A stretch of 64,000 nt of DNA, from positions 77,743-141,742 of the forward strand of contig CAYHJF010000001.1 in NCBI GenBank assembly GCA_964356915.1, written 5' to 3'. The stretch is from an uncultured Candidatus Saccharibacteria bacterium. Lineage in GTDB: Bacteria; Patescibacteriota; Minisyncoccia; Ryanbacterales; GWA2-47-10b. A model generated the notes under the pieces. The model ran no database searches and had not been told where the DNA came from. It saw only the letters and a program-made list of their open reading frames with translations. A program made the position numbers and the translations under genes. Shown here one piece after another: positions 4,311-28,220 of the stretch (position 1 is its first letter; every line of letters begins with the position of its first letter).

Positions 4311-5156
4311 CTAATCTAAAAGCATCATAGCGACAAGAGTATGAACGCGCCGAGCAAATGTAGGAACATCTTCATGCTCCAAAATATCGATCGGATGACC
4401 AAATTCAAGCGTGAGACGTGCGCCAGATTTGAGGCGCAAAAGAGAACCTTTGGGGAGCGCTTTATGCGCGCCGGAAAGTGCGAGTGGCACGATCGGGAGC
4501 TTTGCCTCTTTGGCAATCGCAAAAGGTCCCTTCTTGAATTCGCCAAGTCGCCCATCGTGCGAGCGTGTTCCTTCAGCAAAGAAAATGAGATTGACCGTCG
4601 GATCTGCTTGTACTGTGGCACGGATTGCCGCCATTGATTGTGCATGATCTGCCCGATCAATGATTGCCTGCGCACTCACCCGTGCAAGCGCTCCGACAAT
4701 CGGGTACGAAAGTACCTCTCTTTTTGCAACAAACCGCGCAAATGGAATTGTAGCGACAAGAAGCAAAACATCGAGCACGCTCTGATGATTTACCACGATC
4801 ACATGAGACCGCGACCAATCAACGCGATCATATCCGATGACCCGAACATCGATCCCTGCGCGTTCCAAGATCCATGGCGCCCAAAATCGTCGTACAAGAC
4901 GCCAATTGTATCGACTGCGCGTACGATCGCGCCACGCGCGGTCTCCCGCATAGACGCGCTGACACTCTGGATATTCGCGATGCCCTGTGCAAACAGGCGT
5001 ATGTCGCCTTAGTACTCGTATCGCACGTCTACCAATAACGATAGTCCGCCAAAACGCCGCGAGAACGATATAGGTATTACGAATAGCATTGTATGGGTGT
5101 CGAAGATATTGACCGACCGTCCATACAGGATACTTTGCATACGTCAGTGCGTTCAC
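4311..5156 (-). CDS. 1-acyl-sn-glycerol-3-phosphate acyltransferase-like (LPLAT family)
   Basis: FAEGTRS motif, N-terminal TM and a PlsC-like HxxxxD region; true start may be internal. Confidence 0.55.
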   Translation of the reverse strand: MNALTYAKYPVWTVGQYLRHPYNAIRNTYIVLAAFWRTIVIGRRAIRVLRRHTPVCTGHREYPECQRVYAGDRAWRDRTRSRYNWRLVRRFWAPWILERAGIDVRVIGYDRVDWSRSHVIVVNHQSVLDVLLLVATIPFARFVAKREVLSYPIVGALARVSAQAIIDRADHAQSMAAIRATVQADPTVNLIFFAEGTRSHDGRLGEFKKGPFAIAKEAKLPIVPLALSGAHKALPKGSLLRLKSGARLTLEFGHPIDILEHEDVPTFARRVHTLVAMMLLD

Positions 5157-5211
5157 ACGCGACTCCCTTCATAAGAAGAACGATTACCCTGTTCTTAGCA
5201 CGTCGCGCAAA

Positions 5212-20417: not shown

Positions 20418-20858
20418 ATGCCCACACTGAATAAAAAAGTTCATTTTAACTATGAAGTTCTCGAAACCTTCGAAGCGGGTCTCGAGCTTCTTGGCTTTGA
20501 GGTTAAGTCCGTCACTAAAGGAAATGCGCATTTAGAAGGCGCTCGCGTTCTTATTCGCGGAGATGAGGCATTTGTCGTTGGGCTTTCTATCCCCCCATAC
20601 CAACAAAACAATACTCCAAAAGACTACGAACCGGATCGTACACGGAAATTACTCCTCCATAAAAAAGAAATCACATACTTAACAGGCAAAGCAAGCGAGC
20701 GGGGCTTGACATTAGTGCCAATTAAGTTGTATAATAAGGGCCGACGAATTAAGCTCTCTTTTGGTATCGCTCGCGGCAAAAAACTTTACGACAAACGCGA
20801 AACAATCAAAAAACGCGAGGTTGATCGCAAGATCGAACGAGAACTTAAAAACTCCTAA
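20418..20858 (+). CDS. smpB: SsrA-binding protein SmpB
   Basis: N-terminus KKVHFNYEVLETFEAGLELLGFEVKSV and C-terminal basic tail; 146 aa. Confidence 0.9.
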   Translation: MPTLNKKVHFNYEVLETFEAGLELLGFEVKSVTKGNAHLEGARVLIRGDEAFVVGLSIPPYQQNNTPKDYEPDRTRKLLLHKKEITYLTGKASERGLTLVPIKLYNKGRRIKLSFGIARGKKLYDKRETIKKREVDRKIERELKNS

Positions 20859-20914: not shown

Positions 20915-21269
20915 GGGGACGCTAGGCCTCGACGAGGAATCGTTTTCATTGAAAATCAGGCAAGAGCACGCTCGCTCATCTCTTTCAAAACTGTGTGAGC
21001 ATAATAAGTGCAAACTTATTTAACCGCCAACCGGCGATGGCATTTGCCTAGTCGCGGCGTTCTCTCACTTCGCTAGACGAAGTGAGCATCGGTCCGCAAT
21101 AGTCAGGTGAGCGGAATACCGGTGTTATAATCCCAGACTAGCGTGATGTGATGCTCGGTAGCATCGCGCGAAACTAATCGAGCAACTTCTTAAGATTCGT
21201 CTTGAGTACGCCTGTATAAATTTTTAGTGAGTCCATCTTCGCATGTGGGTTCGATTCCCACCGTCTCCA
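20915..21269 (+). ncRNA. ssrA: tmRNA (SsrA), ~355 nt
   Basis: Lies directly downstream of smpB. The 5' GGGGACG pairs with 3' CGUCUCC to form the acceptor stem. UCGACGAGG near the 5' end is tmRNA-like. The T-arm is GGGUUCGAUUCCCAC. An internal tag ORF begins GCA AAC (21010-21051) and reads ANLFNRQPAMAFA*. Confidence 0.7.
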
Positions 21270-21288
21270 CTGACAACACGACCCGCTT

Positions 21289-24437: not shown

Positions 24438-25532
24438 ATGTTGGACTACGGAAACACGCGTGTCGGAATATTCTTTACAGGCCTCTTTTTTCTTTTTCTG
24501 GGAGGCATTGTTATCTATCGCCCCCAACTCATGGCAACGCCAACACCGCCGAAATCATATATCCCAGCTCCTCCAATCATAGAAACCGCGCCAATCTCAA
24601 AAACTGAGACGCCAAAAACAGAGACACCTCACCCACCTAAATCTCCTGCAACGCACGCTACAGAAACTACATCAACAACAACGGTAGCCACTACATCACC
24701 AACAACAAGCACGTCTACTCCTCTTGTTACAACAGAACTTCCTCAAGTCACTCTGAAGACTCAACCTGAAACCGTAATAACTGGTGGACTTCAATTTTCA
24801 TCACAAGTCTGGCAAGGAGTTATTCGCATCACAGGAAGCGTTGTTTTTTCACCATGGACAACTCTAACTATCAAACCTGGAACAAAAATTATCTTTGAGA
24901 AAAAACCTGATATCGCGGGCACGGACTGGACCGATAATGCAGATGCGTACACCAAAGATCACAACGACCCGACAGGACGAAGCGGATATCGTCTATCGCA
25001 TTACAGCATCACGGGCACGATCACCGCGATCGGCACAAAAGAAGAACCAATCATCTTTACGTCTGCCGAAGAAAAACCTGACTATGCGGATTGGGACCAA
25101 CTCATACTCTTAGAAGGTAGTATTTTAGATCATGTCGAGATCTCGTATGCACACAATGGCATTCTCACATATGGTGACAACGTCACGATAAAGAATAGTA
25201 AAATTCAAAGTTCGCTTTGGAGCTGTATCGATCTTTTCTCAACAGGAAACATTATTGAAAATAATGAAATTTTTCACTGTTGGCACCAGGCAATCGGCAT
25301 TAAAAAACAAGGACAAAATACTATCAAAGATAATCTCATTCATGATGTCTGGCTCGGGATTAATTGTGAAAATGGCGCAAACCCAACCATCACCGGCAAC
25401 GCATTTCGCGCAGCCCCTCAAAATAATACTTGCCAAGTTGGAGGAGATAATACAATCCTTGAAGCACCTCCTGACTCGCTTGGTGGCACATATGGTGGGG
25501 TACTAATATATCCGACACAAAAACAAAACTAA
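24438..25532 (+). CDS. secreted protein with Thr/Pro-rich linker and right-handed parallel beta-helix repeats
   Basis: N-terminal TM/signal; PTPPKSYIPAPP...TTSTTTVATTSPTTSTSTP linker; repeated N-x-I/V-x-N units (NVTIKNSKIQ, NIIENNEIFH, NTIKDNLIHD, NPTITGNAF) typical of PbH1 repeats. Confidence 0.6.
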   Translation: MLDYGNTRVGIFFTGLFFLFLGGIVIYRPQLMATPTPPKSYIPAPPIIETAPISKTETPKTETPHPPKSPATHATETTSTTTVATTSPTTSTSTPLVTTELPQVTLKTQPETVITGGLQFSSQVWQGVIRITGSVVFSPWTTLTIKPGTKIIFEKKPDIAGTDWTDNADAYTKDHNDPTGRSGYRLSHYSITGTITAIGTKEEPIIFTSAEEKPDYADWDQLILLEGSILDHVEISYAHNGILTYGDNVTIKNSKIQSSLWSCIDLFSTGNIIENNEIFHCWHQAIGIKKQGQNTIKDNLIHDVWLGINCENGANPTITGNAFRAAPQNNTCQVGGDNTILEAPPDSLGGTYGGVLIYPTQKQN

Positions 25533-25542
25533 ATAAAAAAGC

Positions 25543-25566
25543 TCTCTCAGAAGAGCTTTTTTATTA
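25543..25566 (+). terminator. intrinsic terminator
   Basis: aaaaagctctctcagaagagctttttt: perfect hairpin plus T-run. Confidence 0.7.
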
Positions 25567-25580
25567 CTACAAACAAGCTA

Positions 25581-25608
25581 TTGACAAAAGTGTGTTTTAG
25601 TGTATAGT
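25581..25608 (+). promoter_or_regulatory. near-consensus sigma70-type promoter
   Basis: TTGACA (25581-25586), 16-nt spacer, TATAGT (25603-25608); GAGGAG SD at 25635-25640, 9 nt before the ATG at 25650. Confidence 0.6.
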
Positions 25609-25649
25609 GGTCGCAACGTTCATTCCCAGAAGAAGAGGAGACTTTACCC

Positions 25650-25913
25650 ATGTCACGTCGCAACAGACACCGCCCCTGCGCTCACGGATGCGGGCACTTG
25701 GTCGCCTCAGGCGACCGCCACGCCACGGGCCACTGCCCGCCCAAGCGTGGTCGCCGTTCGCGCGACAAGCATCACTGGATGGGTGACGGCAGCATCGTCG
25801 GCATGAAGGAGATCGGCGTCGGCGCGGATGTCGGCACGCGTGGCGTTCCGGTCACCGGTGTCGGTGGCGGAAAGGCCAAAAGCCACCGCGTCGCCAAAGC
25901 CAAGACCGCCTGA
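25650..25913 (+). CDS. small basic Cys/His-rich protein encoded in GC-rich foreign DNA
   Basis: 87-aa ORF (MSRRNRHRPCAHGCGHL...HCPP...), ~65% GC versus ~45% host; bounded by a consensus promoter plus SD upstream and hairpins downstream. Confidence 0.4.
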   Translation: MSRRNRHRPCAHGCGHLVASGDRHATGHCPPKRGRRSRDKHHWMGDGSIVGMKEIGVGADVGTRGVPVTGVGGGKAKSHRVAKAKTA

Positions 25914-25994
25914 GACCAACCGCCTCGGGACGGCTTCGCATCGTGCGGAGCCGTCCCACCCCCCACTCTTCATCTTTATAGATATCTTTGTTTG

Positions 25995-26027
25995 AAAACC
26001 TCGTCCCAGACGAGGTCGTTTTTTTAA
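25995..26027 (+). terminator. intrinsic terminator
   Basis: cctcgtc-ccaga-cgaggtcg hairpin followed by TTTTTTT; a second hairpin (gcccct/aggggc) at 26040-26058. Confidence 0.6.
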
Positions 26028-26055
26028 TTATTAAAATAAAAAGCCCCTTTAGGGG

Positions 26056-26653
26056 CTACTTACGAATACGTGTGAGAAATTCGAGCGATTCTAAACGCAT
26101 CCGTTGTTGATATGAAACTGGTAAACCAAGGGCGTGATGCGAGAGTGCTGCAACGGAATATGCTAAAAATTGATGCGGGACGTTACCTTCAACAATCCTA
26201 CGCATATGAGTCTCGCTATCAAGGCCACGATGAAACGTCGTTGAGTATGAGTCTGCAATAATACATCCTATGAACTCAACCCTATCAAAGGGCGTTAGAC
26301 GCTCTGCGCCTCCAAAGCGATCTACAGCATCAAACGCGAGAGCAATGCCTTCGGCAAAACGCTCTCTCTTCGCCTGTCATAAGATCACGCAGTCGCTCAT
26401 CGACCTCTTCATTAAATATGCCAGCCCGTGCAGGATGAATGAGATACCACTCATTTGGCACAAAAGATTCAGCAATCTCAACGGGCCCCGAGAATCGCAA
26501 AAATGCATTTAATGCATACACGATACCTTCAAGATATTGTTGCTGCTCGTTTTGCACTCGAAACTCACGCATCCGAGCATCAACAACAGCATTAAAGCCC
26601 CTTACGCTTTCTGAGAGATTCGCTTCTGATATTTCAGGTGTGGCGAGTAGCAC
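26056..26653 (-). pseudogene. frameshifted gene of unknown function (two frames joinable at a CT-repeat)
   Basis: A 107-aa ORF ends at TGA 26330. A second reading frame, offset by one nucleotide from the first, is open from 26376 down to the stop at 26056 and encodes a protein-like sequence (...AKRERFAEGIALAFDAVDRFGG...LTRIRK*). The frames overlap at gctctctctt (26361-26370). Confidence 0.45.
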
Positions 26654-26790
26654 GTAACCTCCATCAAAGAACGTTTACTATAAAATATACTAACTTATGT
26701 TAAAAGTCAATGATTTATATGCGCCCAACTATCTCCCCCTCCGTGCATCATTCTTTCTAACCTTACTCACTATTCAGCCCCCAAAATGTA

Positions 26791-26819
26791 TTGACTTTTA
26801 GTAAAAATAGTGTTATAAT
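26791..26819 (+). promoter_or_regulatory. consensus sigma70-type promoter
   Basis: TTGACT (26791-26796), 17-nt spacer, TATAAT (26814-26819); AGGAGG SD at 26857-26862, 6 nt before the ATG at 26869. Confidence 0.65.
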
Positions 26820-26868
26820 GAATCCAGAAACGTGGCTACAAAAACGCCACCAAAATAGGAGGACCTTG

Positions 26869-27495
26869 ATGAAGACTTGGATGCTGCTGATGGCGCTCGT
26901 GCTCGTACCCTGCTGGACAAACGCCGACGAAGGCGGCCGCGCCGAACCTACATGGATGGAAGAAGTGCGTGGTGCAACGCCGATGCCGAAGATCTGCAAG
27001 CTCATGCAGGACAGCGACATCGAAGGCGTCGAGCCTCATGTCGCCAAGAAGGTTGCGGAAGGTCTCCTCACAGAGATCCTGCGGGCCGACAAGATCGTCG
27101 ATCGCATCTGCGACATGAGCGGTGGCGAGCAGATCGACTTCGCTGACGGCGAGATCGTCATCGCCGAAATCGGAGAGTGGCTGACTCTCGCCAACCTCCA
27201 GCCGAGCGACATCGGTGTATCAACCGCGGAATTGCGCGAACTGCTCAAGACGAACATCGCTCGCAACATCGCGCGATACCGCGAGCTCCACGCCAAAAGC
27301 GAGTGCACGAACGCCGACTGCTCCACTTTCTACACGGGGATGGCCCAAGGAGCGCTCGATCGCCTGCACTTCACCAAGGAAGACGTCGGACTCACTCAAG
27401 ATGACGTAGTCATCTTCGAGCTGACGACTACCACAACGACAACCGCCATGACGGCCAGCAGCACGACTTCGACTACGCTCGTCTCGTCCAACTGA
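26869..27495 (+). CDS. secreted protein with poly-Thr C-terminal tail, encoded in GC-rich foreign DNA
   Basis: 208 aa from the ATG after the SD; signal peptide MKTWMLLMALVLVPCWTNA|DEGG; C-terminus ELTTTTTTTAMTASSTTSTTLVSSN; ~60% GC; the track ORF 26791.. extends upstream in-frame, but the SD supports 26869. Confidence 0.5.
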   Translation: MKTWMLLMALVLVPCWTNADEGGRAEPTWMEEVRGATPMPKICKLMQDSDIEGVEPHVAKKVAEGLLTEILRADKIVDRICDMSGGEQIDFADGEIVIAEIGEWLTLANLQPSDIGVSTAELRELLKTNIARNIARYRELHAKSECTNADCSTFYTGMAQGALDRLHFTKEDVGLTQDDVVIFELTTTTTTTAMTASSTTSTTLVSSN

Positions 27496-27526
27496 CCACG
27501 ACGACACAACAAGGTTTGAGCAAACC

Positions 27527-27560
27527 TGATCAGCTCCCCTGCAACATTCCGTTGCAGGGA
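27527..27560 (+). terminator. intrinsic terminator
   Basis: cccctgcaac-attcc-gttgcaggg hairpin followed by TTTTTTAT. Confidence 0.65.
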
Positions 27561-27659
27561 TCTTTTTTATAAATATATTCGAAAAAAATAAAAACCGGAG
27601 AATATCCTCCGGCGATCTACGTGATTTCTTATACTGAAATTACGAAGTTACTTTGCAAC

Positions 27660-28220
27660 TCATGCACTGACATCGACAAATCTTCCTCTCGTAGCATCAA
27701 GCGCACGCTCATACAGATGATCTGCAATACCTCCAAGGGCACGTTCAGTTCGTCGATATGAGCCCGTCGGAGCGATTCCTCCATGAGAGATATTGGAATG
27801 TATTTCAAGAATCCTTCGATCTATAGCCCATCCAACAAATGGCAGTCGATCTACGTCAGCACCATAAAGAGAAACGCCCCGATTAGGCAACAACTCTCTC
27901 AAACTTCTAACAGATTGTTCTGAAGTGATAATTTCAATCGATACCCCTCTCGCTACTGCCTGCTCAAAAGCTCTCTTAAGCCTATCTACTTGGTAAAGCA
28001 CGTGATAGCACCCATAGGAACTACATACGATAACGATCGTTCGACGTGATTGCAAAATATCGGCAGAAAGCGCTGAAAGCGCGGCTTGGGGTGTTTCTCG
28101 ATACCCAAAAACCAAACGACTCTCCCATAACACTCGTACGATACCGACACATATACCTAATACACCTATGACCATAAGGAAAATGAGGGTCATTGGAACC
28201 TCCGTGATCAGATATACCAC
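27660..28220 (-). CDS. hypothetical membrane-anchored protein (possibly DUF218/SanA-like)
   Basis: 186 aa; N-terminal TM; weak resemblance to YdcF/SanA-type fold. Confidence 0.35.
   Translation of the reverse strand: MVYLITEVPMTLIFLMVIGVLGICVGIVRVLWESRLVFGYRETPQAALSALSADILQSRRTIVIVCSSYGCYHVLYQVDRLKRAFEQAVARGVSIEIITSEQSVRSLRELLPNRGVSLYGADVDRLPFVGWAIDRRILEIHSNISHGGIAPTGSYRRTERALGGIADHLYERALDATRGRFVDVSA

Follow-up and report, generated by a model that had tools for sequence, protein, structure and literature searches.

Bacterial nucleoid proteins such as chlamydial Hc1 and mycobacterial HupB/MDP1 possess histone-like Lys/Ala-rich tails, which in HupB/MDP1 are C-terminal. Phage morons, for example gene 15 of HK97, are characterized by a promoter and a terminator of their own and by a deviant GC content (Cumby, Davidson & Maxwell 2012, PMC3594210). 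Aspects of both are found in a small gene unit at positions 25581-26025 on the plus strand of a 64,000-nucleotide stretch of contig CAYHJF010000001.1 from an uncultured Candidatus Saccharibacteria bacterium (the window, whose numbering is used below unless a contig is named). A preliminary description of this DNA proposed a self-contained, compositionally alien expression cassette, for which a small metal-binding or nucleic-acid-binding protein, a RiPP (ribosomally synthesized and post-translationally modified peptide) or bacteriocin-like precursor, and a recently transferred or engineered module were named as candidate identities. Our analysis upholds the unit itself, its anomalous composition, the plus-strand gene and the binding-protein candidate, but not a recent or engineered transfer nor the RiPP precursor. 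As an overall explanation we consider it moderately probable that the unit is an autonomous resident gene that encodes a member of an undescribed zinc-knuckle nucleic-acid-binding family, and whose GC excess is stable.

Coding strand and architecture of the unit

The plus-strand open reading frame (ORF) of this unit (25650-25913; 87 amino acids, pI 11.4, net charge +13) is almost certainly a real and conserved protein-coding gene. Pairwise differences at codon positions 1, 2 and 3 amount to 0.034, 0.035 and 0.519, respectively, over 15 conserved columns of a 19-sequence codon alignment. Frame +1 is also the only frame that is free of stops in all 19 coding sequences (CDS), as every other frame is stopped in several members, and the window itself has stops in all five alternative frames. 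Additionally, 18 of the 47 residues that are identical between the window protein and a relative, P0001 (61% identical), use differing codons, including CGT versus AGG for Arg. The codon-position pattern and the sole open frame indicate that the plus-strand ORF is a protein gene under purifying selection and that the antisense ORFs are artefacts of GC-rich frames, as the preliminary description had supposed. In the public annotation of this DNA, one of these antisense ORFs is called instead (25707-25973, minus strand; 11270-11545 of contig L001, 91 amino acids), while contig L002 has no gene called over the unit's DNA and an exact look-up of the 87-amino-acid protein found none on record, only a 44-amino-acid fragment (P0002). 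Islands of high GC content within AT-rich genomes lead gene callers astray, and an annotation failure in which the antisense artefact is called and the true protein stays off record means that such small genes are under-counted.

Continuity of the DNA was assessed with three public contigs located via a neighbouring 364-amino-acid protein (Hainich well H41, 0.1-um fraction, replicates R1-R3). These independently assembled contigs carry the GC-rich block at ~100% identity and agree across both of its junctions, so the DNA is no one-off assembly chimera. All differences from the window fall within 25942-25990: L003 breaks off at 25942, L001 reads N throughout 25944-25946 and shows a small indel at 25949, and the four mismatches of L002 in an AT-rich spacer (25965, 25973, 25986 and 25990) could be low-coverage errors or strain variation. 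The clustering of differences at 25944-25990, with one contig ending and another showing a run of N, could be taken as a sign of a chimera, just as the choice of the gene caller in L001 could be taken to mean that the minus-strand ORF is the true gene; we assign a negligible probability to either. The breaks in L003 and L001 fall within or next to the loop of a 14-bp palindrome (25927-25957), and a 20-bp palindrome downstream of another homologue behaves alike, with contigs L007, L009 and L010 ending there and L006 showing a run of N. Coverage of the assemblies with such breaks is 3-7x. Recurrence of breaks at palindrome loops, as in L005-L010, points to an assembler or sequencing artefact rather than a biological junction, and the minus frames carry stops not only in the window but also in many homologues.

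The layout of the unit is that of a monocistronic gene, with a promoter, a ribosome binding site, the 87-codon ORF, a 14-bp hairpin and an intrinsic terminator in that order. A consensus scan places a putative sigma-70-type promoter, TTGACA-N16-TATAGT, at 25581-25608, where 11 of 12 positions match. This sequence match would comprise a -35 element at 25581-25586, a 16-nt spacer and a -10 element at 25603-25608, and would set the start of transcription near 25615. The Shine-Dalgarno element GAGGAG, read directly at 25635-25640, lies 9 nt before the ATG at 25650. Downstream of the stop codon a repeat finder identified a GC-rich hairpin in the 3' untranslated region (25927-25957; 14-nt arms that are 93% complementary, a 3-nt loop and no T-run), which may protect the 3' end of the mRNA or otherwise contribute to its stability. 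The intrinsic terminator follows at 25998-26025 and has an 8-bp stem (ACCTCGTC/GACGAGGT; 25998-26016), a 3-nt loop and then CG and seven T residues. On the upstream side, a gene for a beta-helix protein ends at 25532 and has its own terminator hairpin (25532-25565). The preliminary description had located each of these elements of the unit correctly, and its view of a self-contained expression unit stands.

Promoter-like sites of this quality are uncommon. Over its two strands together, the window contains only four that match at 11 or more of 12 positions, against 1.4 in shuffles; they are the unit's own, one in front of a second GC-rich unit (cassette 2, below), one upstream of the transfer-messenger RNA (tmRNA) gene, and one within the MetRS gene that is attributed to chance. 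In 12 of 19 distinct loci of the family, the 160 nt upstream of the gene contain an 11-12/12 promoter, where 0.09 are expected from the background in the same loci of one such site per 34.5 kb, and seven of these 12 have a perfect TTGACA/TATAAT pair. The homologues carry AAGGAG, GGAGG or AGGAGG at the equivalent Shine-Dalgarno position, which is strong in most loci, and a hairpin with a T-run lies shortly 3' of the stop codon in 15 of the 19. Judged from these signals, the unit is likely to be transcribed constitutively, strongly and on its own.

A family of small basic proteins with a Cys/His motif

The family comprises about 30 distinct sequences of 64-98 amino acids, with one copy of the gene in the window. 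A hidden Markov model search of 1.84 billion representatives gave 14 matches (P0001 and 13 further ones), a profile search gave 18 matches, and a hand-made degenerate DNA pattern detected one genome locus, 12 further metagenome loci and no viral locus. In contrast, protein patterns derived from alignment A1 or from member P0012 found no relatives in genome, metagenome or viral contigs. Database names for the members are limited to "hypothetical protein [Parcubacteria group bacterium]" and a "Patescibacteria group bacterium" bin, and literature searches found no description of the family. We thus regard it as previously undescribed; so far it is seen only in Patescibacteria/Parcubacteria of groundwater and comparable metagenomes and on two phage-like contigs of high GC content.

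Members share the motif C-x2-3-C-x9-10-H-x4-C, followed by an Arg/Lys-rich disordered linker and then by RG-x-x-V-x-G. By the numbering of the window protein, the conserved positions are C10, C14, G15, H16, V18, G21, [D/N]22, R23, H24, C29, P30, P31, R64, G65, V68 and G70. Residues C14, V18, G21 and H24 are invariant in alignments A2 and A4, while conservation is 90% or more at C10, H16, C29, P30 and P31 and at R64, G65, V68 and G70. The putative knuckle is encoded at 25677-25742 (C10-x3-C14-G-H16-x-V18 ... G21-D-R-H24-x4-C29-P-P), and the C-terminal motif, R64-G65-V-P-V68-T-G70, at 25839-25859, after which come a Gly-rich stretch and a Lys/Ala-rich tail. Two substitutions help to define the ligands: C29 is replaced by His in P0009, which would still be a metal ligand, and H16 is replaced by Phe in P0023, so that the likely ligand set is C10, C14, H24 and C29. 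AlphaFold2 models built from 13 or 21 sequences predict residues 10-30 as a beta-hairpin (pLDDT ~83), their only confident part, and the remainder as disordered except for a low-confidence helix at residues 74-84. Given the conservation of all four putative ligands and the modelled hairpin, this segment is probably a zinc-binding CCHC knuckle. Single members give sub-threshold Pfam matches to PknG_rubred (0.013) and Zn_ribbon_3 (0.016), and the window protein has no match to curated zinc-finger models.

The closest described counterparts of this segment are the CCHC knuckles of retroviral nucleocapsid proteins (Pfam zf-CCHC) and rubredoxin-like knuckles. The family would share with them a short set of Cys-Cys-His-Cys ligands on a beta-hairpin, within a strongly basic polypeptide that is mostly disordered. 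However, the family spacing of C-x2-3-C-x9-10-H-x4-C differs from the C-x2-C-x4-H-x4-C of zf-CCHC, and no zinc-knuckle or zinc-ribbon model of Pfam exceeds threshold, nor is there a structural match. Resemblance to Hc1 and HupB/MDP1 lies in the basic, low-complexity Lys/Ala-rich C-terminal segment (KAKSHRVAKAKTA) and in presumed abundance; unlike those proteins, the family has a short tail and lacks HU- or H1-like folds, and no sequence homology between them was detected. Every member is strongly basic (pI 10.4-11.7, net charge +11 to +18). This extreme charge, together with the conserved consensus promoter, makes an abundant nucleic-acid-binding role the most likely one, and of the identities that had been put forward the small metal-binding or nucleic-acid-binding protein is the best supported, in keeping with the Cys/His pattern and the charge.

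The neighbourhood of the gene differs from locus to locus. Neighbours include a beta-helix protein, a CBS-domain protein, Wzy_C, CspA with a DEAD-box helicase, PDDEXK, MNT/HepT, and a membrane protein with AhpC or DksA, and no conserved neighbour, modifying enzyme or transporter was found across at least 12 contexts. With neighbours this variable, neither an operon partner nor a RiPP-type cluster is tenable. A RiPP or bacteriocin precursor, in which an N-terminal leader would guide modification and export of a Gly/Val-rich C-terminal core, would account for the small size, the conserved Cys residues, the Gly-rich conserved C-terminal motif and the strong promoter. Yet neighbours differ at nearly every locus, with no conserved adjacent radical-SAM enzyme, cyclodehydratase, lanthipeptide synthetase, peptidase or ABC exporter; the most conserved part of the protein is the N-terminal Cys/His knuckle, which is untypical of a leader; and there is neither a signal or double-glycine leader nor a match to precursor models of Pfam or NCBIfam. 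We therefore consider a precursor of this kind very unlikely. A separate observation concerns contig L011, where a GC-rich ORF of 60 amino acids (MEKQIEWTATGYRPGD...; 2568-2750) begins 11 nt after the family gene and is followed by a 181-amino-acid ORF; neither has a relative in the window.

Composition and origin of the GC-rich block

As the preliminary description had noted, the unit stands out from a host background of about 45% GC. The segment 25601-26000 has 62.7% GC, with 60-nt windows of up to 77%, and the ORF has a GC fraction of 0.682 (z = 7.9 against 0.451 +/- 0.029 for host ORFs) and a third-codon-position GC fraction (GC3) of 0.773 (z = 6.5 against 0.396 +/- 0.058), where the host reference consists of 69 non-overlapping ORFs of at least 100 codons. 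The GC-rich block extends over ~25650-25960 and thus covers the ORF and the first hairpin but excludes the promoter, leader and terminator. Across the family, ORFs have 58-72% GC against 40-51% in their flanks, an excess of 12-31 GC points. Rewriting the window protein in host codon usage gives 0.561 GC versus 0.686 observed, so that about half of the excess stems from the Gly/Ala/Arg/Pro composition of the protein and about half from the choice of G/C-ending codons. Preferred codons are GCC, GTC, GGC, CAC, GAC, CGC and AAG, of which GCC, GTC and GAC account for only 11%, 12% and 21%, respectively, of their codon families in the host.

A second unit of high GC content, cassette 2, is present downstream at 26791-27568. 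It has a promoter-like TTGACT-N17-TATAAT with an upstream TG (26791-26819, 11/12), AGGAGG at 26857-26862, a 208-amino-acid ORF at 26869-27495 and a terminator at 27537-27568. Its product has a signal-peptide-like N-terminal segment and a Thr-rich C-terminus and is an orphan that matched only itself among 5.8 billion clusters. The GC fraction of this ORF is 0.593 (z = 4.9; 0.469 in host codons) and its GC3 is 0.766 (z = 6.4).

Composition of this type could be explained by a recently acquired foreign cassette, in which the ORF and hairpin came from a GC-rich phage or bacterial donor, were not ameliorated and came to lie behind a host-like promoter, with cassette 2 acquired likewise. Several features fit such a history: codon usage is unlike that of the host and like that of cassette 2 (GCC, GTC, GGC, GAC, CGC, AAG), the GC-rich block reaches 47 nt beyond the stop codon into a non-coding hairpin, family members are present on phage-like contigs of 60-65% GC, and the clade formed by the window, L004 and L026 has the highest GC3 (0.77-0.92). 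Furthermore, the homologous stretch of L004 and L031 starts right at the -35 element. We nonetheless consider recent acquisition improbable, given that the same architecture and GC excess recur at 15 or more other Patescibacteria loci and that orthologous loci, which belong to other family members (L004/L026/L031/L032 and L005/L013/L022), have diverged as much as their neighbours. For example, the promoter, CDS, terminator and downstream region of L004 align with those of L026, L031 and L032 at 62-73% identity, and between L004 and L031 the CDS (72.7%) is about as diverged as the downstream region (71.7%). In the trio L005/L013/L022 the upstream membrane-protein gene shows 53-64% amino acid identity, third-position differences of 0.57-0.59 and a GC3 of 0.32-0.48, while the small gene shows 52-66% identity, third-position differences of 0.66-0.72 and a GC3 of 0.61-0.68. 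Synonymous sites are thus saturated, yet each lineage has kept a GC3 excess of 0.2-0.3, which is unlike a neutral relic of recent transfer.

The surroundings of the unit give the same picture. Its flanks are chromosomal, with smpB and the tmRNA gene upstream and infC and rplT downstream. Repeat searches found no direct or inverted repeats flanking the unit and no repeat of the tmRNA 3' end that could have served as an island attachment site. Among the window neighbours there are no matches to prophage or phage hallmarks, integrases or defence genes beyond weak GDSL and PLD-like similarities. Likewise, tblastn and blastn searches of the INPHARED phages and PLSDB plasmids returned no significant match, which speaks against a vector or an engineered module, and viral-contig collections also gave no match. 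An engineered origin is effectively excluded, as the assemblies are environmental, the family is natural and no vector matches exist. The occurrence of GC-rich homologous small genes of the same architecture at the same locus in relatives, seen at loci of other family members, identifies the gene as resident; a recent or engineered insert is not supported. We take the GC excess to be a lasting trait of the family rather than a trace left by recent transfer. Apart from this, in the alignment of L004 with L031 and L026 the homologous stretch opens at the -35 hexamer (~630 in L004) and the genes upstream are unrelated, a CBS-domain gene being present only in L004, which suggests that the left edge of the L004 unit is a rearrangement or insertion boundary.

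In AT-rich genomes, islands of high GC content often represent structured RNAs, and the block might accordingly be primarily a structured non-coding or dual-function RNA with an incidental or secondary ORF. In support, the predicted folding of entire transcripts is better than that of their dinucleotide shuffles (z = -2.9 and -4.6), and CDS of the family on average fold better than synonymous shuffles (mean z -0.95, 15 of 19 negative, nominal p 0.002 ignoring relatedness). However, the substitution pattern is of the protein type, the CDS of the window itself has a folding z of +0.34 against synonymous shuffles, and RNAalifold on three orthologous transcripts gave a penalising covariation term of +6.6 with many broken pairs and thus no covariation support. 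Rfam searches of the window gave no match at gathering thresholds except for the tmRNA, with only chance-level hits at E < 10 across 25400-27700. The folding tests point to no specific conserved structure and at most to weak generic selection for a strongly folded mRNA, and we regard the structured-RNA alternative to the protein gene as scarcely plausible. As for the cause of the excess, maintenance by selection has about an even chance when set against incomplete amelioration of an old transfer.

An old transfer brings the comparison with morons into focus. The unit resembles a moron in having a candidate promoter of its own (11/12 at 25581-25608), a terminator of its own (hairpin and seven T residues at 25998-26025) and a deviant GC content (0.682 vs 0.451 +/- 0.029), and in that some family members reside on phage-like contigs. 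These contigs, L016 (47 kb) and L024, have 60-65% GC and carry their members within tight same-strand operons of small genes, with neither a promoter of their own nor a GC contrast; PHROG-family genes nearby on L016/L024 match phrog_6361 (2e-33), phrog_3199 (7e-18) and phrog_3236 (7.5e-10). L016 (Logan contig SRR29078210_5300, 60% GC, two PHROG matches) is probably a phage of a GC-rich host; its member P0012, at 5001-5207, has overlapping start/stop codons and no promoter of its own. In contrast to a moron, the unit of the window lies outside any prophage, between housekeeping flanks and with no phage hallmark matches among its neighbours, and so fails the defining feature of these elements. 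The family gene is also conserved at orthologous chromosomal loci, and because the GC excess outlasts saturating divergence, composition is no simple mark of recent transfer. The phage-like contigs hint at, and are compatible with, an old phage origin of the family, and the chromosomal units could, by analogy, be compared to domesticated morons.

Proposed role, neighbouring features and significance

The proposed mode of action is as follows. A near-consensus sigma-70 promoter would drive a ~410-nt transcript with a short leader, a strong ribosome binding site, the 87-codon ORF, a 3' hairpin and a terminator. Its product would have an N-terminal knuckle of the Cys-Cys-His-Cys type (C10, C14, H24, C29), with zinc as the most likely metal, then an intrinsically disordered linker rich in Arg and Lys and, as the third part, a conserved RG-x-x-V-x-G-x-G motif with a Lys/Ala-rich tail. 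Such a protein may act as an abundant nucleic-acid-binding factor, for example as an RNA/DNA chaperone or as a nucleoid- or ribosome-associated component, a role to which we give even odds on the strength of charge and promoter. The GC excess would reflect either selection on the stability or structure of the mRNA or a very old, phage-derived and moron-like origin that has been partly ameliorated. The anatomy of the gene, its coding frame, the family with its conservation pattern, the composition and the synteny are shown, whereas the binding of zinc and of nucleic acids, a high level of expression and the reason for the GC excess are inferred.

A number of results weigh against this reading. 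The AlphaFold models have low confidence overall (pLDDT 60-64), and the family has no match above threshold in Pfam, NCBIfam, PHROGs or PADLOC. Profile searches of the PDB gave either nothing or a chance match to eS24 at E ~8, and structure searches of the PDB and BFVD found no fold match. That the family is rare and patchy speaks against a core ribosomal or nucleoid role, and expression is deduced from signals in the DNA. With regard to composition, the IF3 and L20 genes in the window have a GC3 of just 0.42-0.45, so the codon bias of the unit does not reflect general translational selection; the folding score of the window's own CDS and the RNAalifold result reveal no conserved RNA structure that could account for this bias; and the G/C-ending codon bias that cassette 2 shares with the unit fits a common foreign origin as well as common selection.

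Other features of the region can be noted briefly. The tmRNA gene (20915-21272; 88 bits in Rfam, tag peptide ANLFNRQPAMAFA), which in the public contig lies just downstream of smpB, is preceded by about 200 nt by a perfect TTGACA-N18-TATAAT at 20706, the sole 12/12 site in the window. Between the unit and cassette 2 the minus strand contains ORFs of 107 (26330-26653) and 49 (26056-26205) amino acids in differing frames, with a promoter-like site at 26710-26682, a terminator at 26057-26042 and no family match; this pair (26056-26653) may be a single disrupted gene, that is, a pseudogene. Adjoining infC on the minus strand is a 186-amino-acid ORF (27660-28220) with weak PLD-like, inactive-HKD and DrmC-like similarity (Pfam E = 0.0016 and PADLOC E = 0.0008, both below thresholds).

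The persistence of this GC excess has consequences for how genomes are read. An island of deviant composition that has a promoter and a terminator of its own is usually taken as a recent transfer, yet this one persists in orthologues with saturated synonymous sites, which calls for caution in the detection of islands by GC content, and it may exemplify selection on the synonymous GC content of a single gene. A further-reaching version, which we put forward as speculative and rather doubtful, is that of a Patescibacteria-specific and very highly expressed zinc-knuckle family in which G/C-richness of the synonymous sites is actively maintained within otherwise AT-rich minimal genomes, and which is systematically missed through wrong-strand calls; the G/C-richness could then be due to a hyper-stable, strongly folded mRNA or to gene exchange between the bacteria and GC-rich phages. 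If true, the family would be an abundant nucleic-acid-binding component, associated with nucleoid or ribosome and new to cells of the candidate phyla radiation (CPR), and it would offer a clear-cut natural example of selection acting on the GC content of one gene. The gene adds a conserved and probably abundant small protein to the ultra-small CPR/Patescibacteria, a group whose cell biology is poorly understood and that has few characterized lineage-specific proteins.

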